Positions 5,016-37,312 of a stretch of 64,000 nt of DNA are shown here, in pieces; the stretch's first letter is position 1; every line of letters begins with the position of its first letter. The DNA is from an uncultured Gammaproteobacteria bacterium. GTDB taxonomy: Bacteria > Pseudomonadota > Gammaproteobacteria > Steroidobacterales > Steroidobacteraceae. Both the position numbers and the translations under genes were made by a program. Location of the stretch: NCBI GenBank assembly GCA_963778855.1, contig CAVZWC010000004.1:117309-181308 (forward strand). Reading direction: 5' to 3'. The notes beneath the pieces were generated by a model that was given only the letters and a program-made list of their open reading frames with translations, was not told the origin of the DNA and ran no database searches.

Positions 5016-6891
5016 ACCCGCATGCCAGCTACGCAGCGCCAAACCGCGTCAACGATTTCGTCATCAAGATCGCCAACGTCAACGGCACCGGCTCGGCCAG
5101 CGCCAACTCGCTGCTCATGAAGGCGATCTTCCGCAGCGGCGTGCCGGTGATCGGCAAGAACTACTTCCCGTCGAACATCCAGGGGCTGCCGACCTGGTAC
5201 GAGATCCGCGTCACCCGCGACGGCCACCTGCGCCGCGCCGCGGCGCGGTCGACATCATGGTGGCGATGAACGCCGAGACCTACGCGCGCGACGTGCAGGA
5301 GGTCGCGCTCCGGCGGCTACCTCATCTACGACTCCACCTGGCCGCGCGCCGGCGCTGCTGCAGCGCGACGACATCACGGTGCTCGGCGTGCCGCTCGCGC
5401 AGCTGTGCAACGAGAACTTCAACGGCGTGCGCAACCGCATCCTGATGAAGAACATCTGCTACGCGGGCGTGCTGGCGGCGCTGCTCGACCTCGACCTCGG
5501 GCGTCATCCGCGACGCTGCTGGCCGAGACCTACGCCAAGAAGCCGCAAGCTGCGTCGACACCAACATGAAGGCGATCCAGCTCGGCTACGACTACGCGCA
5601 GCGAGCACTTCACCTGCCCGCTGCCGCTGCGCGTCGAGCAGCTCGACAAGACCGCGCGGCCACATCATGATCGACGGCAACACCGCCGCGGCGCTGGGCT
5701 GCGTGTACGCCGGCGCCACGGTCGGCGCCTGGTATCCGATCACGCCCGTCGACCTCGCTGATGGACGCCTTCAAGGGCTTCTGCGACCGCTGCGCGTCGA
5801 TCCGGCGACCGGCCGCAAGAACTTCGCTGGTGATCCAGGCCGAGGACGAGCTGGCCGCGATCGGCATGGTGATCGGCGCCATCGTGGAACGGCGCGCGCG
5901 CCTTCACCGCCGACCAGCGGGCCCGGGCATCTCGCTGATGAACGAGTTCCTCGGGCTCGCCTACTACGCCGAGGTGCCGGCGGTGGTCTTCGACGTGCAG
6001 CGCGTCGGACCCTCCACCGGCATGCCGACGCGCACCCAGCAGTGCGACATCATTCGGCTGCGCCTACGCCTCGCACGGCGACACGCGCCACGTGTGCCTG
6101 TTCCCGGCCAACCCGGAGGAATGCTTCTACATGTCGCGCCGCAGGCCTTCGATCTGGCCGAGCGCCTGCAGACGCCGGTGTTCGTGCTGTCCGACCTCGA
6201 CATCGGCATGAACGACTGGATGTGCCGCGACCTCAAGTGGGACGACGCCTACGTGCCCGATCGCGGCAAGGTGCTCGACGAGGAGCAGCTCGACGAAGCT
6301 CGAGAAGTTCTAGCGCTACGTCGACCACGACGGCGACGGCATCCCCTACCGCACCCTCCCGGGCGTGCAGCCCCAAGGGCGCGTACTTCACGCGCGGCTC
6401 CGGCCACAACCAGTACGGCGCCTACACCGAGGACTCGGCCGAGTACCAGGTGGTGCTCGACCGGCTGCGCAAGAAGTGGATCACGGCCGCGACGCCTGGT
6501 GCCGCAGCGCGGTGATCGAGTCGCCGGCGGGCAGCGAGCTCGGCATCGTCACGCTCGGCAGCTGCGACGGCGCCGTCCGCGAGGCGCATCGACGCGCCTC
6601 GGCCGCGCAGGGCGTGCACGCTCGACTACATGCGCGTGCGCGGCTTCCCGTTCGGCGAGGAGGTCGAGCACTTCCTCGCCGCGCACCAGCTGCAATGTTC
6701 GTCGTCGAGCAGAATCGCGACGCGCAGCTGCGCGCGCTGCTGACGCTCGAGACCGGCGTCGCGAAGAGCCAAGCTGCGCTCGATCCTGCACTACAACGGC
6801 ATGCCGCTGTCCGCCGACTTCATCGTCGACGGCGTCATGGCCGAGGTGCAGGACGACGCCGCGCCCGACGGCGCAACTGGTGCGCAAATGA
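5012..6891 (+). pseudogene. korA: 2-oxoglutarate/2-oxoacid:ferredoxin oxidoreductase subunit alpha (KorA), multiply frameshifted
   Basis: GTGA overlap with the preceding gene. Fragments are DFVIKIANVNGTGSASANSLLMKAIFRSGVPVIGKNYFPSNIQGLPTWYEIRV, IMIDGNTAAALGCVYAGATVGAWYPITP, IQAEDELAAIGMVIGA, GISLMNEFLGLAYYAEVPAVVFDVQRVGPSTGMPTRTQQ and FVVEQNRDAQL. The end is set at the TGA that overlaps the korB ATG. Confidence 0.8.
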
Positions 6892-28419: not shown

Positions 28420-28496
28420 TGGCGCGCCCGACTGGATTCGAACCAGCGACCTGCAGCTTCGGAGGCTGCCACTCTATCCATCTGAGCTACGGGCGC
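28420..28496 (-). tRNA. tRNA-Arg (anticodon CCG)
   Basis: The reverse complement GCGCCCGTAGCTCAGATGGATAGAGTGGCAGCCTCCGAAGCTGCAGGTCGCTGGTTCGAATCCAGTCGGGCGCGCCA folds as a cloverleaf. The anticodon stem is GCAGC/GCTGC, the loop is CU-CCG-AA, and the T-loop is GGTTCGAATCC. CCA is encoded. Confidence 0.95.
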
Positions 28497-29563: not shown

Positions 29564-30419
<856 letters not shown>

Positions 30420-30420
30420 G

Positions 30421-31086
30421 TCAGCGCAGTGCCCTGGACGTAGGAGGCGACATCGCGCATGTCCTCGGCGTTCAGTCGCGCGGCGATGGTCTGCATGATG
30501 AGATAGTTCTCGCCGCCCATGCTCGTGCCCTTGGTGTCCTTGGTGTAGCGCTCGCCGGCGCCGTAGGCCTTGAGCTGCTTGACCACGTACATCGACTGCT
30601 GCGCGCGCAGCGCGGGATAGCCGGCAGCCGGGATTGCCGCGCCCGGTCGGCCCGTGGCAGGCGGAGCAGGCTGGGATCGCGCGCTCGCGATCGCCGCTGC
30701 GGTACAGCTTCTGGCCCGCCTTCCAGTACGACGGGTCGGCCTCGAGGCCGGCAGGCGTCTGCTGCTCGAAGTACACGGCGACGTCCTCGATGTCCTGGTC
30801 GGTCAGCGTGGCCGCCATCGGCGGCATCATGGCCGCGGACGCGTCGCCTGGCATCCCGGGGCGCATGCCGTCGTGCAGCAGGTGCAGCTGGTGCGGCGAT
30901 GTAGTCGGCGTTCTGGCCGGCGAGGTTCGGCCACTCGGGGTTCGACGCTGTTGCCGTTGCTGCCGTGGCAGGCGTGGCAGGTGGCGGCCACCGCGGCGCC
31001 CGCCTCGGCCGAACCTTCGGACCAGGAACTGCGGCGCGGCCAAGCAGGGCGAGCGCGCAGCAGGCGATTCGTATCGTCGCGGTCAT
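30421..31086 (-). pseudogene. Dihaem cytochrome c4, frameshifted
   Basis: Signal peptide MTATIRIACCALALLG, then NPEWPNLAGQNADYI, GMPGDASAAMMPPMAATLTDQDIEDVAVYF, the second haem motif PACSACHGPTGRG, and the C-terminus EDMRDVASYVQGTAL*. It lies upstream of dsbA and divergent from engB, as in Pseudomonas. Confidence 0.8.
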
Positions 31087-31165
31087 CGTGTTTTCCGTGC
31101 CTCGTGGGACGCAGGATTGTACACTAGGACTTGCCGTCCCGCCGCAAGCCGGATCGACCCCGCCG

Positions 31166-31768
31166 ATGAGCACCTATCCTCGCGCCGCCCTGCTGGTCAG
31201 CGCCGCGCACGAGCGCCAGTTTCCCCGCGGACCTTGGGGCCGAGGTGGCCTTCGCCGGCCGCTCGAACGCGGCAAGTCGAGCGCGATCAACGCGCTCACC
31301 GCGCGCCACGGTCTGGCGCGCACGACCAAGACGCCGGGGCGCACGCGGCTGCTCAACTTCTTCGAGCTGGCGCCGCTGCGGCGCATCGTCGACCTGCCCG
31401 GCTACGGCTACGCGTCCGCGGGTCGCGGCCGAGCGCGCGAACTGGGCGCCGATGATCTCGGCGCTGGCCGCGCGCTCCTCGCTCCGGGGTCTGTTCCTGA
31501 TCGTGGACGCCGGCGCGGCCTGATGCGGGGCGACTGGGAGTTGCTCGACTGGGCCGAGGCCGCGCAGCGGCCGGTGCACGTGCTGCTCACCAAGGCCGAC
31601 AAGCTCAAGCGGGCGGAATCCAGGCAGGCGCTGGCGCGCCGCGACGGCGATGCTGTCCGGCCGGGCAACGATCCAGCCTTTTTCGGCCGTCGACGGCACG
31701 GGCCTCGAGGACGCCCGGCGGCAGCTCGAACGTTGGCTTCGCGACAGCGGTCAAGCCGGCGAAGATTG
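31166..31768 (+). pseudogene. engB: Ribosome biogenesis GTP-binding protein EngB/YihA, frameshifted
   Basis: Fragments read ..[50 protein letters not shown] and, from my own translation, the C-terminus [32 protein letters not shown] ending at 31768. Confidence 0.85.
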
Positions 31769-31779
31769 AAAACCTGGGC

Positions 31780-31876
31780 CAATAAAAAGGCCCCGGTGGC
31801 CGCAGATTGGGGGGGATTGGCCACCGGGGCACAGCGACCCGCTTAGGGAGGGAGCGGGGAGCGCTTGTCGCACTCA
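31780..31876 (-). ncRNA. Candidate sigma-E-dependent small RNA at the Spot 42/ErsA-equivalent locus between polA and engB
   Basis: On the minus strand a sigma-E-type promoter (31883-31910) is followed by ~95 nt. This ends in a 12-bp GC stem (GCCCCGGTGGCC/GGCCACCGGGGC, 31789-31829) plus CUUUUUAUU. An upstream stem-loop exposes CCCUCCCUA, and the terminator loop contains C7. The 5' end is an estimate. Confidence 0.55.
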
Positions 31877-31882
31877 CGGGAA

Positions 31883-31910
31883 GTTGGAGCAGGCCGTCGC
31901 AGAATAGTTC
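31883..31910 (-). promoter_or_regulatory. Sigma-E (RpoE/AlgU)-type promoter
   Basis: The minus strand reads GGAACTA-16 nt-TCCAA, compared with the consensus GGAACTT-N15-17-TCnAA (E. coli RpoE) or GAACTT-N16-17-TCTGA (AlgU). Confidence 0.55.
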
Positions 31911-31951
31911 CCGCGGTTGGCATCGTGGGGCCAAGGGGCCGCCGCGGCTCA

Positions 31952-31988
31952 GAAAAACGACCGGCTGGGGCCCACCGAGAGCAGGGTC
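31952..31988 (-). terminator. Possible polA terminator (imperfect hairpin CGACC-CTG/CAG-cc-GGTCG followed by TTTTTCT)
   Basis: It lies 25-60 nt downstream of the polA stop on the minus strand. The stem is weak (8 bp with a bulge) but followed by a T5 tract. Confidence 0.35.
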
Positions 31989-32013
31989 GGCGTGGAGGTC
32001 TTGCGTCCCGGCC

Positions 32014-34831
32014 CTAGTGCGCCTCGTCCCAGTTGGCGCCGAGGCCGACGTCGACCTTGAGCGGCACGCGCAGCTCGGCCGCCGCCGCCATGAGCGCGCG
32101 CACGCGCGCACTGGCCTGCTCGAGCGACGTCCGCGTCGCACCTCGAGCACGAGCTCGTCGTGCACCTGCATCAGCAGCCGCGCGCGGTGCCGGGTCGCTG
32201 GCACCACGCGTCGACCGCGATCATCGCGCGCTTGATGATGTCGGCCGCCGTGCCCTGCATCGGCGCGTTGATCGCGCTGCGCTCGGCGTACTGCTGCAGT
32301 TGCCGATTGCGCGAGCGGATGTCGGGCAGGTACAGCCGCCGTCCGAACACGGTCTCGACGTAGCCGTCGCGCGCGCGCGCGCTCGCGCGTGTCGTCCATG
32401 TAGCGGCGCACGCCCGGGTAGCGCGCGAAGTAGAGCTCGACGTACTGCGCGGCGGCCGCGCGGTCGATGCCGAGCTGGCGCGCGAGGCCGAAGGCCGACA
32501 TGCCGTAGATCAGCCCGAAGTTGATCGCCTTGGCCGAGCGGCGCTGGTCGGCGCTGACCGCGTCGGGCGCGACGCCGAACACCTCGGCGGCGGTCGCCTG
32601 GTGCATGTCGCGGTCCTCGGCGAAGGCGCGCAGCAGCCCCTCGTCGCCCGACAGGTGCGCCATGATGCGCAGCTCGATCTGCGAGTAGTCGGCCGCCAGC
32701 AGCAGCCAGCCCGGCGGGGCAATGAAGGCCTGGCGGATGCGCCGGCCCTCGGGGCGTGCGGATCGGGATGTTCTGCAGGTTCGGGTCGGTCGAGGACAGC
32801 CGCCCGGTCGCCGCCACGGCCTGGTGGTAGGAGGTGTGGATGCGGCCGGTGCGCCGCGTCGATCTGCTGCGGGAGCTTGTCGGTGTAGGTCGAGCTCAGC
32901 TTGGCGAGCGCGCGGTAATCGAGGATCAGCCGCGGCAGCGCGTGTTCGGCGGCGAGCTCCTCGAGCACGTCCTCGGCGGTCGAGGGCTGGCCGGTCGGCG
33001 TCTTGCGCAGCACCGGGATCTGCAGCTTCTCGAACAGGATCTGCTGCAGCTGCTTCGGCGACTCGAGGTTGAACTCCTGCCCCGCCTCGCGCTGCGCCTG
33101 CGCGCCGAGTTCGGCCAGGCGCTTCGCGAACTCGCCGCTCTGCGCCTGCAGCATCGCACGGTCGACCAGCACGCCGCCGCGCTCCATGCGCTGCAGCACC
33201 GGCACCAGCGGCTGCTCGATCTCGTCGTAGAGCCGCGCGAGCGCGGGCACGGCCTCGAGCTGCGGCCACAGCGCCTGGTGCAGCCGCAGCGTGACGTCGG
33301 CGTCCTCGGCGGCGTACTCGGTCGCGCTGCTCGACGCTGACCTGGTCGAAGCTGAGCTGCTTGGCGCCCTTGCCGGCCACGTCCTCGAAGTGGATGGTCT
33401 CGATGCCGAGGTAGCGCTTGCCGCCATCGAGTCCATGTCGTGGCGGGTCGCGATGCTGTTGAGCACGTACGACTCGAGCATCGTGTCGTAGCGCATGGCC
33501 GCGCAGCGTGATGCCGTGGTTGGCGAGCACGTGCGTGTCGAACTTCATGTGCGCGCCGACCTTGGCGTGGCCGGGATCCTCGAGCAGCTGGCTTGCAGCG
33601 CGCCGAGCACGCGCTCGCGCGCCAGCTGCTCGGGCGCGCCCGGGTAGCCGTGCGCGAGCGGCACGTAGGCGGCCGCGCCCGGCTCGACGCAGAAGGAGAC
33701 GCCGACGATCTCGCGCCTTCATGTAGTCGAGGCCCGTGGTCTCGGTGTCGAAGGCGAACAGGCTGCGCGCCGCAGGCGCTCGAGCCAGCCCAGCGAACAC
33801 GGTCCAGTCGTCGATCATCTCGTAATGCCGCTCGACCGGGTCGGCGCCCGTGATCGGCGGCGCGGAGCTGGCGGCCGCCCCCGGCCCGAGGGCTGTGGCC
33901 GCGGCGGCAGCCGGCATCGCGCGCATGGCTGCGGCGCCGGTGGCAGCACCGGGTGTGCCCGCAGCGCCCTCGCCGCCGTCCAGCGCGCGCAGGAGCGAGC
34001 GCATCTCGAGCCGCGTGTAGAGGTCCCGCAACGCCTCGGCGTCCGCCGGCCGCGGCCGCAGCGCCGCCTCGTCGATCGCGGCAGGTCGAGGTCGCAGCGT
34101 ATCGTCGCCAGCTGGCGCGACAGCTCGAGCGTGTCGAGTGCCGGCGCGCAGGTTCTCGCCCACCTTGCCCGTGATCTCGGCCGCGTGCGCCAGGATCGCG
34201 TCGAGCGTGCCGTACTGCGTGAGCCACTTGGCCGCGGTCTTCGGCCCCACCTTGTCGACGCCGGGGATGTTGTCCGAGCTGTCACCGACCAGCGCCAGGT
34301 AGTCGACGATCTGCTCGGGCTAGACGTCGAACTTCGCCTTGACGCCGTCGCGGTCGAGCAGCGTGTCCGTCATCGTGTTGATGAGCGTGACGCGCTCGTC
34401 GACGAGCTGCGCCATGTCCTTGTCGCCGGTCGAGATCAGCACCTGCTCGCCGGCCGCGGCCGCGCGCGAGGCCAGCGTGCCGATGACGTCGTCGGCCTCG
34501 ACGCCCGCGATGCGCAGCAGCGGCAGGCCCAGCGCCGGTGACGGTCTGCAGCAGCGGCTCGATCTGCGCGCGCAGGTCGTCCGGCATCGGCGGGCGGTGC
34601 GCCTTGTACTCGCGCGAACAGGTCGTCGCGGAAGGTCTTGCCCGGCGCGTCGAAGACCACCGCGAGCCGCGTGCCCGGATACTCCCGCACCAGCTTCTGC
34701 AGCATGTTGAGCACGCCGAGCACGGCGCCGGTGGGCTCGCCGCGCGAGTTGCTCAGCGGCGGCAGGGCGTGGAAGGCCCGGTACAGGTAGGAGGAGCCGT
34801 CGACGAGGATCAGGTTCGGCTTGGGAGGCAT
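32014..34831 (-). pseudogene. polA: DNA polymerase I, heavily frameshifted
   Basis: The N-terminus is [26 protein letters not shown] (5'-nuclease). Other strings are [45 protein letters not shown] (3'-5' exo), [48 protein letters not shown] and [13 protein letters not shown]. The C-terminus GANWDEAH* ends at 32014. These pieces are scattered over all three minus frames, implying at least ~10 frame changes. Confidence 0.9.
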
Positions 34832-34847
34832 CAGGGGACGCGCTTGA

Positions 34848-35081
34848 CTACTGCGCGGTCGAGGGGTCCGGTGCCGGCGGCAACTTGCGGCGCGTGGCGG
34901 GGTCGTCGGCGGGCGGCGTCCCGGGTGGTACGGCCGGGGCCGCCGCGGGTGGCTTGGCCGGCACCCTGGCCGGCGCCTCGTCTGGCAGGTACAGGCCGCC
35001 CTTCTGTCCGCAGCCGCCCAGGATCGACAGCAAGCACACGGCCACGATCGGGGACGGACGAGACCAGTCCTGGTCGCTCAT
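34848..35081 (-). CDS. lptM: LPS translocon maturation lipoprotein LptM (YifL family)
   Basis: The ATG at 35081 gives [35 protein letters not shown], i.e. a lipobox followed by the conserved GxLYLP motif and then a Pro/Ala-rich tail. Confidence 0.7.
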
Positions 35082-35085
35082 GGCT

Positions 35086-35532
35086 TCAACTCCCGGCTGG
35101 CGCCAGCGGCGCCGACGGCGGCATCGGCCGCCGCGATCGGAGGGTGAGCCAGCCGCGCGCCACGCGGTAGGCCACCCACAGTCCGACGATCGCAAAGCCG
35201 ATGATGACGATGTAGATGCCGACGACGATCAGGGTCAGTGGGGCGCCCACAAGCAGCGTCAGGCAGACCCAGAGCAGCGCGAACCAGAAGGTGCGGATCT
35301 GCCAGCCGAAGTGGGACTCGAGCCAGGTGCCGCGCACCTCCGACCGGCGCGCATAGTTGAGGATGACGGCGACGATCGAAGGCAGGCCGAACAGGAACCG
35401 GCCGGCGATGCTCGAGCTCGTGAGCACGCCGGTCAGCACGGCGCAGGCGTGCAGGCCGTAGATCCACTGCGTGTAATTGAACAGCCCCGCTGCGGGCTCC
35501 ACCACAAAGGTCTGCTCGTGCGCATCGCTCAT
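35086..35532 (-). CDS. Small integral membrane protein (four predicted TM segments, DUF4870-like)
   Basis: Intact 148-aa ORF with hydrophobic segments and a conserved-looking NYARRSEVRGTWLESHFGWQIRTFW. The family assignment is tentative. Confidence 0.5.
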   Translation of the reverse strand: MSDAHEQTFVVEPAAGLFNYTQWIYGLHACAVLTGVLTSSSIAGRFLFGLPSIVAVILNYARRSEVRGTWLESHFGWQIRTFWFALLWVCLTLLVGAPLTLIVVGIYIVIIGFAIVGLWVAYRVARGWLTLRSRRPMPPSAPLAPAGS

Positions 35533-35685
35533 GGGAACCGCCTGCCGCTCGGCTGCGGGGATCCGCGTGGGCCGCCATGATAATCCGGGTTCGTGGGCAA
35601 GGCTTCCTTAAGGGCAATTGCATCACTCGTGTGACAATAGGACCGCAAGTAGCAATATTGTAGCTGTGTGGCGCACATTTCGCGT

Positions 35686-37312
<1,627 letters not shown>

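Follow-up and report, generated by a model that had tools for sequence, protein, structure and literature searches.

Three RNAs that Rfam lists as separate families, with no clan, are the closest described counterparts of the small RNA (sRNA) gene analysed here: anti-hemB, sX13 and ErsA. The gene lies between polA and engB in a 64,000-nucleotide (nt) stretch of an uncultured Steroidobacteraceae genome (contig CAVZWC010000004.1, positions 117,309 to 181,308), hereafter the window, whose G+C content is 70.5%. Anti-hemB was predicted in 2007 by CMfinder as a likely non-coding RNA (PMC1950547), with a 3' intrinsic terminator hairpin and U-tract (Weinberg 2007, PMC1950547). Its counterpart in Burkholderia cenocepacia J2315, ncS04, is a 105-nt transcript detected by Northern blotting, with a mapped start, a terminator and co-purification with Hfq (PMC4603805, PMC5688073); it sits between BCAL0264 and BCAL0265 in a <- -> <- arrangement (PMC4603805). 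A 2026 preprint ties anti-hemB to low salinity and heme regulation and proposes it as a regulator of hemB (bioRxiv 10.64898/2026.09.01.748597).

sX13, a 115-nt RNA with three C-rich loops, always lies downstream of polA in Xanthomonadaceae (PMC3771888). It represses mRNAs through G-rich motifs near their start codons, represses hfq, is itself Hfq-independent, and accumulates at high salt, at 37 °C and in minimal medium (PMC3771888). The sX13 authors had already pointed to two other RNAs at the polA locus, Spot 42 and alpha-r7 (PMC3771888). ErsA occupies the polA–engB spacer, depends on σ22/AlgU, and comprises three stem-loops and a U-rich domain (PMC8575079, PMC13613067); this unstructured domain binds targets with Hfq (PMC8575079). 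Among the papers searched, none links sX13 to RpoE, AlgU or envelope stress, or ErsA to sX13.

We put at roughly 0.8 the probability that the window carries a real sRNA gene of the anti-hemB/sX13 lineage with a σE-type promoter. Most likely, its product is a three-hairpin short form of this lineage (anti-hemB, RF02837, ncS04; sX13). An sRNA of the anti-hemB/sX13 kind is already known; what is new is the shortened member in the window. The gene and its flanks comprise the following features.

31781-31877, minus strand: predicted sRNA, ~94-97 nt (match of covariance model R1, described below; fold z = -5.1)
31905-31911, minus strand: -35 box GGAACTA, RpoE/AlgU (σE) type, from the sequence; family consensus (G)GAACTT
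31884-31888, minus strand: -10 box TCCAA, 16-nt spacer from the -35 box, from the sequence; family consensus TC(T)(A)A
31859-31875, minus strand: stem-loop 1 (SL1), GAGUGC-GACAA-GCGCUC, 6 base pairs (bp) including one G-U, from the fold; loop without a C run
31838-31858, minus strand: stem-loop 2 (SL2), stem CCCGC / GCGGG, with the 11-nt loop UCCCUCCCUAA at 31853-31843, from sequence, Rfam alignment and fold
31790-31830, minus strand: intrinsic terminator, 12-bp GC stem (31830-31819 / 31801-31790), from sequence and fold
31802-31818, minus strand: terminator loop AAUCCCCCCCAAUCUGC, 17 nt, with a C7 run at 31815-31809, from the sequence
31781-31788, minus strand: U-tract UUUUUAUU, from the sequence
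31767-31769, plus strand: stop codon (TGA) of the convergent engB (YihA/YsxC GTPase), 11 nt from the sRNA 3' end
32014-32016, minus strand: stop codon (TAG) of polA, protein end ...NWDEAH, from reading of the sequence
31951-31978, minus strand: weak terminator-like hairpin of polA itself, 5 bp with an 8-nt loop (31978-31961), then TCGTTTTTCT, from a simple terminator scan

The start at ~31877 +/- 2 was deduced from promoter geometry and lies ~137 nt 3' of the polA stop codon on the same strand; the 3' end was placed within the U-tract. SL2 follows SL1 directly, a 7-nt linker precedes the terminator stem, and the minus strand then reads CUUUUUAUU. A 106-nt stretch folds into the three hairpins at -47 kcal/mol, compared with -31.3 +/- 3.1 kcal/mol for dinucleotide shuffles (z = -5.1; 0 of 200 shuffles as stable). 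On the two strands of the 64 kb there is a single instance of the promoter pattern GGAACT-N16-18-TCNAA, and there is none in any of 100 dinucleotide shuffles (expected 0.00). A promoter scan found no σ70-like promoter in the spacer, and a simple scan of the spacer for terminator-like sites returned only the polA hairpin and its T5, ~40 nt past the polA stop. The CCUCC core of the SL2 loop is also the anti-Shine-Dalgarno core of 16S rRNA. CCTCCCT, which reads AGGGAGG on the other strand, is found once in the 64 kb, in the SL2 loop (5.5 +/- 2.3 in shuffles), and looks depleted in the rest of the window.

A preliminary description of this spacer had proposed a discrete RNA gene on the polA strand with its own promoter, more than a terminator of polA, and the features above bear it out. 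The promoter it named, GGAACTA-16 nt-TCCAA, is present at 31911-31884 (minus strand) and unique in the 64 kb; the 12-bp GC stem is there with a U-tract after it, as is the weak hairpin with T5 following polA (31978-31951, minus strand). Its spacer boundaries agree with ours (engB stop given as 31768, found at 31767-31769; polA stop at 32016-32014). The two hairpins with C-rich loops that it drew are both real and their stems covary; the 5' hairpin SL1 had been overlooked.

At Rfam gathering thresholds, the sRNA gave no match and the window only a tRNA. Relaxing the thresholds made several sRNA models converge on the same spot and strand: anti-hemB (RF02837; 34.0 bits, gathering score 49.5, E 4.6e-6), 6C (26.1 bits, gathering score 47, E 0.36), sX13 (RF02232; 25.0 bits, gathering score 50, E 0.016), ar7 (alpha-r7, RF02342; 24.9 bits, gathering score 60, E 0.0093) and Pseudomon-1/ErsA (RF01719; 17.3 bits, gathering score 50, E 1). 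The Spot 42 model gave no match at E <= 10 in 31500-32300. With cmsearch, therefore, neither Spot 42 nor ErsA (17.3 bits against a threshold of 50) fits, in keeping with the preliminary description, which had found the sequence to resemble neither. SL2 (31858-31838) aligns with high posterior probability to positions 1-26 of the anti-hemB model, whose first hairpin (UCCCCGC..CCUCCCU.AGCGGGU) is nearly identical, as is the terminator; the 20-nt middle of the model is missing. The absence of this middle hairpin explains the score of the window copy, 34 bits where the threshold is 49.5.

We searched the reconstructed polA C-terminus against one genome per species and obtained 80 polA loci (individual loci are given below by L numbers). 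The closest polA relatives belong to Steroidobacteraceae and to unclassified gammaproteobacterial metagenome-assembled genomes (MAGs), at 85-74% identity. Searching with the spacer (blastn) revealed a homologous element 3' of polA, on the polA strand, in 13 close-relative loci. These carry four helices, namely SL1, SL2, a middle hairpin with a GAGACC or CCCCA loop, and the terminator. A first MAFFT alignment that included the window (A1) misplaced its terminator arm onto the relatives' middle hairpin and was replaced by alignments A2, A3 and A4. A2, made with MAFFT from the 13 relatives and leaving out the window, has 91.7% of its cells paired, compared with 31-46% when partners are slid, and shows compensatory changes in 9 pairs; its covariation score was equalled by 0 of 500 shuffles. 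Five of the 13 sequences pass the anti-hemB gathering score.

The covariance model R1 was derived from A2 and hence built without the window. It matches the window at 31781-31877 on the minus strand with 61.2 bits (E 1.2e-15), its sole match in the 64 kb, and 29 model positions, corresponding to the middle hairpin, are deleted. Applied to the 80 polA loci, R1 identified 26 significant copies, every one 3' of polA on the polA strand, including copies from Woeseiaceae, Methylothermaceae, Rhodanobacter and Thiocapsa. Relatives at the same locus reach the anti-hemB gathering score (L024 at 59.5, L004 at 57.4, L012 at 54.8, L007 at 51.9 and L017 at 51.1 bits), and L089, L102 and L103 likewise exceed it, at 53-61 bits. 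An unbroken chain of orthologues thus leads from the window, with its 61 bits for R1, to sequences above the anti-hemB threshold, which makes the window RNA a divergent member of that family. The preliminary description was therefore mistaken in calling it a new sRNA; the feature itself is real, and the regulatory and positional reading was largely right.

To sample the family more widely, metagenome contigs were scanned for CCCCGC-N2-5-CCTCCCT-NN-GCGGG, yielding at least 120 loci. Some 14 of the 120 matches listed have none of polA, engB, hemB or hemJ as a neighbour. Some of these, L092, L104, L185 and L193 among them, look like chance pattern matches, mostly in coding-like sequence. An R1-guided alignment of 81 copies (A3; 80 distinct), drawn partly from the matches listed, has 96.4% of cells paired against at most 50% when slid, and the SL2 loop reads CCUCCC or CUCCCU in 79 of the 81; both figures are inflated, since A3 was fitted to the model and partly collected through a pattern that requires the loop. 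This bias does not extend to the polA-selected subset or to the MAFFT alignment A2. None of 500 shuffles reaches any of the A3 measures. Across its 80 distinct sequences, compensatory changes occur in 26 of 27 base pairs (6 of 6 in helix 1, 5 of 5 in SL2 and 9 of 10 in helix 4, the terminator). The stems thus covary, in A2 as in A3; covariation in related polA–engB spacers was a check suggested by the preliminary description. The SL2 loop is kept even in the distant L014, L026, L034 and L049, where the SL2 stem is wholly replaced, and a CCCC run stands within the terminator loop of 29 of the 81. Which strand encodes the RNA is settled by three things: ~115 G-U cells, the U-tract and the promoter.

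The middle hairpin is absent from only three of the 81 sequences, namely the window, L082 and L101. All have the three-hairpin layout, with the terminator loop enlarged and containing a C6-7 run. Over the engB region the nearest relative is L101 (77% nucleotide identity), and the L082 terminator carries a compensatory C-G to U-A change. Because these two metagenome contigs share the layout, the short form is a natural, clade-specific variant. It falls under the Rfam threshold there as well, and Rfam-based annotation misses the window gene for this reason.

We then compared genomic contexts by orienting 147 loci (the pattern matches listed and others) on the RNA and seeking neighbours by tblastn, confirming their identities as ALAD PF00490 (hemB), UPF0093/HemJ and YihA/YsxC TIGR03598; the engB orthologue of L001 matches TIGR03598 at 193 bits. 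The counts of contexts and of promoters by context given here are among the matches listed. Three arrangements stand out: polA> sRNA> <engB (56 loci, plus 9 without an engB match downstream), <hemB sRNA> <engB (17 loci) and <hemB sRNA> hemJ> (23 loci). Convergent engB is common to the first two and hemB to the last two, and the hemB/engB context is the arrangement published for ncS04 (PMC4603805). The sRNA terminator lies 0-50 nt from the engB stop codon or overlaps it. The distance to polA ranges in relatives from 40 to ~1570 nt, sometimes with other genes between, such as a 184-residue outer-membrane beta-barrel protein (PF13505; L012 6008-6562) or a major facilitator superfamily (MFS) transporter (L017 5819-7099); in both, engB still adjoins. 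The constant neighbour is engB rather than polA or hemB. Positional conservation at polA–engB, as put forward in the preliminary description, therefore holds for the locus, the fixed neighbour being engB, with polA up to ~1570 nt away.

Other arrangements were also seen. In L196 (11157-11276) the sRNA is inverted in the engB–polA spacer, with engB upstream on the same strand and polA convergent downstream. L085 (4832-6606) and about 23 similar, Comamonadaceae-like loci (L081, L097, L108 and L113 among them) have hemB divergent and a HemJ-like UPF0093 gene downstream on the same strand; in loci of this type the RNA is flanked by two heme-synthesis genes and has a σ70-like TTGAAA-N17-TAAATT promoter. 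In L069 (OM182), four tandem ACAGCCGTCTATTT copies stand directly 3' of the sRNA terminator, at about 6030-6085.

The promoter was followed across the family by searching for GAA[AC]N3-N15-17-TCNNA within 85 nt upstream of SL2. This σE motif is present in 48 of 56 polA/engB loci, with about 1 expected from shuffles, in 8 of 9 polA loci without an engB match downstream and in 13 of 17 hemB/engB loci. It occurs in 0 of 23 hemB/hemJ loci, 19 of which carry TTGnnn-N16-18-TAnnnT instead. Control frequencies were ~1.7% in shuffles, 0 of 56 on the reverse strand and 0 of 56 at 400 nt upstream, and most of the loci scored as misses have one-base variants such as ACTAA or TCTAC. The 74 distinct promoters have the consensus (G)GAACTT, a spacer of ~16 and TC(T)(A)A, followed after 6-8 nt by the first G of SL1; the sequences between the boxes vary freely. 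For comparison, promoters of the RpoE class read GGAACTT-N16-TCAAA in E. coli, and those of the AlgU class GAACTT-N16/17-TCTGA. In polA-selected genomes with a convergent engB, a set independent of any RNA pattern, the motif is found on the sRNA strand in 29 of 48 and on the other strand in 0 of 48, with 1.84 expected.

We also saw the motif in spacers of Pseudomonas (ErsA), Methylococcaceae, OM182 and Piscirickettsiaceae, and did not find it in the polA–engB spacers of Enterobacter, Photorhabdus and Serratia. Conservation strongly backs the reading of the predicted window promoter as one of RpoE/AlgU type, and so upholds the σE/AlgU assignment of the preliminary description: the boxes are kept over variable spacers in those 48 of 56 polA/engB loci. 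The σ70-like promoters of the hemB/hemJ members imply that σE control is not universal in the family.

Hairpins with C-rich loops were observed in further polA–engB spacers, those of Methylococcaceae, OM182, Piscirickettsiaceae, Neptunomonas/Neptuniibacter, Zhongshania and Microbulbifer (L021 5790-5966, L030 3233-3462, L039 5825-6060, L069 5870-6030, L054 6146-6256, L072, L077, L080 and L067). Most have a GGAACTT-type -35 box; it is absent in Zhongshania L067, and the regular expression found none in L030, L072 and L080. Folding of whole spacers with default parameters did not place all C-rich runs in apical loops (in L077 and L080 they lie elsewhere), and only L030, L021 and L054 gave weak model matches.

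Several points weigh against the assignment to a σE-driven anti-hemB/sX13 lineage. The window copy scores below Rfam's own thresholds for all families (anti-hemB 34 versus 49.5, sX13 25 versus 50) and lacks the family's middle hairpin, and the A3 figures carry the bias described above. The RNA is known here from the DNA sequence alone. In B. cenocepacia, the level of ncS04 was unchanged under the stresses tested (PMC5688073, Table 2). The hemB/hemJ members, with their σ70-like promoters and 0 of 23 σE motifs, stand apart. Related extracytoplasmic function (ECF) sigma factors read similar boxes, and a motif is no proof of dependence on a given sigma factor. The exact 7-mer target AGGGAGG was not found elsewhere in the 64 kb.

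Sequence quality is a further concern, as the many indel errors in the window mean that single-base details of the RNA may be wrong. Frame switching is needed to read essential genes across 29573-37312, especially polA (32014-34831, minus strand), where the frame changes at least 8 times. Many 1-nt frameshifts are seen in polA, engB, cytochrome c4 and dsbA, and the N-terminus of murJ is affected too. This looks like error-prone draft sequence in which an indel occurs about once every few hundred bases; alternatively, the genes may be a series of pseudogenes. Given these frameshifts, sequence errors may account for how long the C7 run is and for the one U that the SL2 loop lacks relative to the relatives. 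We also observed a tRNA gene at 28423-28496 (minus strand; Rfam, 66 bits) that adjoins the dsbA / cytochrome c4 / engB block, a synteny also present in the relative L001.

We infer from the sequence how the window sRNA most likely works, including its σE dependence, expression, trans action, targets and any role of Hfq. An RpoE/AlgU-type extracytoplasmic-stress sigma factor would start transcription at GGAACTA-N16-TCCAA, such that envelope stress would raise the level of the RNA, and transcription would stop at the strong intrinsic terminator, 11 nt short of the convergent engB stop codon. The apical C-rich loops (UCCCUCCCUAA in SL2 and C7 in the terminator loop) would then pair in trans with G-rich or Shine-Dalgarno-like sites close to the start codons of a set of mRNAs, which would be translated less, as shown for the C-rich loops of sX13. 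The C7 terminator loop of the window may replace the lost C-rich middle loop. By analogy with sX13, we lean slightly towards such an anti-Shine-Dalgarno or G-rich-site mechanism; that the most conserved part of the RNA is an anti-Shine-Dalgarno-like apical loop fits trans pairing.

An interplay of the sRNA with the convergent engB transcript is a secondary possibility. Taken further, the element might act chiefly in cis, its transcript and that of engB pairing and controlling each other through stability of the engB 3' end or sponging of the sRNA, with trans targets secondary. Such an arrangement would account for convergent engB being the most constant neighbour, in both the polA/engB and the hemB/engB contexts, and for engB having no obvious terminator on its own strand. 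It sits poorly with the copies in the hemJ context and in Rhodanobacteraceae, Thiocapsa and Xanthomonas (PMC3771888 for Xanthomonas), which keep the RNA and its loops with no engB downstream. The placing of the strongest conservation in an anti-Shine-Dalgarno-like apical loop and the trans action of sX13 on many mRNAs (PMC3771888) also speak for a trans-acting RNA, and we regard a mainly cis role as unlikely.

The spacer could also be just a terminator region, for polA or bidirectionally for polA and engB, with functionless upstream hairpins. A 12-bp GC hairpin with a U-tract where two genes converge, at 11 nt from the stop of engB, and the A-rich run AAUAAAAAGG before that hairpin on the engB strand are what one would expect of it. 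On the engB strand, however, the hairpin is followed by ACAGCGACC and no U-tract, and polA has its own hairpin with T5. Moreover, the promoter and hairpins stay as a unit by engB while polA may be up to ~1570 nt away, covariation is seen in SL1 and SL2, the loop of SL2 does not vary, the upstream promoter is conserved, and homologues are expressed as discrete sRNAs (PMC4603805, PMC3771888). We consider this reading very improbable.

Slightly less credible still is a genuinely new family that resembles anti-hemB, sX13 and ErsA through convergence on GC-rich hairpins with C-rich loops. All Rfam matches on the window are under their gathering scores, the 6C model also reaches 26 bits, and unrelated phyla have evolved sRNAs with C-rich loops (6C and RsaE among them). 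Against this, the orthologue chain from the window to anti-hemB-passing sequences is continuous and stays at the same locus, SL2 is nearly identical to the anti-hemB consensus, and engB is a common neighbour. A small protein can practically be dismissed: of the two minus-strand open reading frames (ORFs) that exist (26 residues, 31923-31843; 40 residues, 31873-31751), neither matches a family or stands in a Shine-Dalgarno-like context, both traverse promoter and hairpins, and relatives vary by stem compensation and loop indels rather than in a codon-like manner, consistent with the preliminary description, which saw no credible ORF in the spacer.

Membership of the anti-hemB/sX13 lineage raises the question of how its branches are related. 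Three copies from Rhodanobacteraceae match both models at the same element: Rhodanobacter L034 (sX13 42 bits, R1 35.3 bits), Dyella L202 (sX13 44.7 bits, R1 30.8 bits) and Tahibacter L203 (sX13 46.9 bits, R1 35.5 bits). The Dyella and Tahibacter loci were obtained by a protein search for polA relatives, whose other matches were mostly fragments. Rhodanobacteraceae copies share the four helices, their loops are of CCUCCCUG type and their promoter reads GAAC..-N15/16-TCTTAA; they fall just under the sX13 threshold (50 bits) and are significant for R1. We read them as intermediates joining sX13 and anti-hemB, and we think it quite probable that these two are related by descent. Contig L201, from a Xanthomonadaceae MAG, stops 133 nt past polA, which is not far enough for sX13 to be seen. 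A divergent DUF2782 gene was noted just upstream of polA in these three Xanthomonadales-type genomes (L202 650-1138, L203 667-1074 and L201 669-1010).

For ErsA the signal is fainter. R1 matches ErsA loci weakly, at 13-19 bits. The broader model R2, whose 31 diverse source copies include none from pseudomonads, gives full-length matches on the polA strand in 13 of 13 polA–engB spacers of Pseudomonas, Halopseudomonas and Stutzerimonas (24-32 bits; E 1e-4 to 8e-3 in 654 kb), with none at E <= 0.1 outside the expected spacer. In the two pseudomonad loci scanned with Rfam, the R2 match coincides with ErsA. Aligned with R2, ErsA has counterparts of SL1, of the third helix and of the terminator with its C-rich loop, and in place of SL2 it has the U-rich domain. 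ErsA is probably a remote homologue of the window sRNA family, and the preliminary description was right to see here an equivalent of the ErsA locus: it is the same polA–engB slot, with R2 matches in all 13 pseudomonad loci. Its inclusion in a common descent with anti-hemB and sX13 is tentative, at a little under even odds.

More speculatively, anti-hemB/ncS04, sX13, ErsA and the unannotated polA–engB sRNAs of Steroidobacterales, Woeseiaceae, Chromatiales, Methylococcales, OM182 and Oceanospirillales-type genomes could all descend from one ancient proteobacterial gene, whose ancestor would have been convergent with engB, driven by an envelope-stress sigma factor and CCUCCC-looped; we would sooner doubt this than assert it. 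Possibly, then, a C-rich-loop RNA anchored by engB and transcribed from a σE-type promoter unites three Rfam families across Proteobacteria. The comparison connects the orphan motif of 2007, anti-hemB, with sX13, a regulator already characterised, and probably with ErsA, and an RpoE/AlgU-type promoter is conserved in most gammaproteobacterial and some betaproteobacterial members. If the common descent is true, anti-hemB would gain a testable role, in which σE would trigger a damping of translation for mRNAs whose ribosome binding sites are strong or G-rich. Together, the findings offer a specific hypothesis, inexpensive to test, on how the family is regulated and how it acts. The results suggest joining the Rfam families in a clan and widening their models.

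Among known systems, Spot 42 shares with the window the slot, in the order polA, sRNA and convergent engB (yihA) (PMC3771888). The polA–engB spacer of Serratia L073 gave 13.9 bits for R1 (E 0.19). Spot 42 differs from the window RNA in being controlled by CRP-cAMP and in being A/U-rich, and the Enterobacter, Photorhabdus and Serratia spacers, which are Spot 42 loci, have no σE motif. Hairpins with C-rich loops that pair with G-rich sites are also found in ar7, 6C, RsaE/RoxS and CcsR, of which ar7 lies near polA (PMC3771888). These RNAs belong to other phyla or classes, the ar7 and 6C scores on the window are under threshold, and the likeness may be convergent.

ErsA resembles the window RNA in its position on the polA strand of the polA–engB spacer, in a 5' hairpin right at the start, in promoter boxes of the σE type (GAACTT-N16-TCAGA, for AlgU/σ22, in ErsA) and in a C-rich terminator loop (CUUCCCUCCCCAUA in ErsA). 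It differs in having the U-rich domain II where the family of the window has SL2, and the window lacks a U-rich linker. sX13 also lies downstream of polA on the same strand and consists of ~100-115 nt of stem-loops with C-rich apical loops, and its Rfam model has the four-helix layout of the window's family. Three of its loops are C-rich (4C/5C), whereas the window has two, in SL2 and the terminator, its SL1 loop GACAA not being C-rich. Unlike the window RNA, sX13 is reported in Xanthomonadaceae only and without engB downstream; PMC3771888 contains no description of its promoter type.

Anti-hemB is the closest. The window differs from it in having polA upstream rather than a divergent hemB, in lacking the middle hairpin and having an enlarged C-rich terminator loop, and in its σE-type promoter, where the hemB/hemJ-context members have σ70-like ones. 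The two share ~100 nt of RNA with a 5' hairpin, a near-identical hairpin CCCCGC-(U)UC(U)CCUCCCUGA-GCGGG and a GC terminator with a U-tract, and in many anti-hemB members, as in the window, a convergent engB lies downstream.

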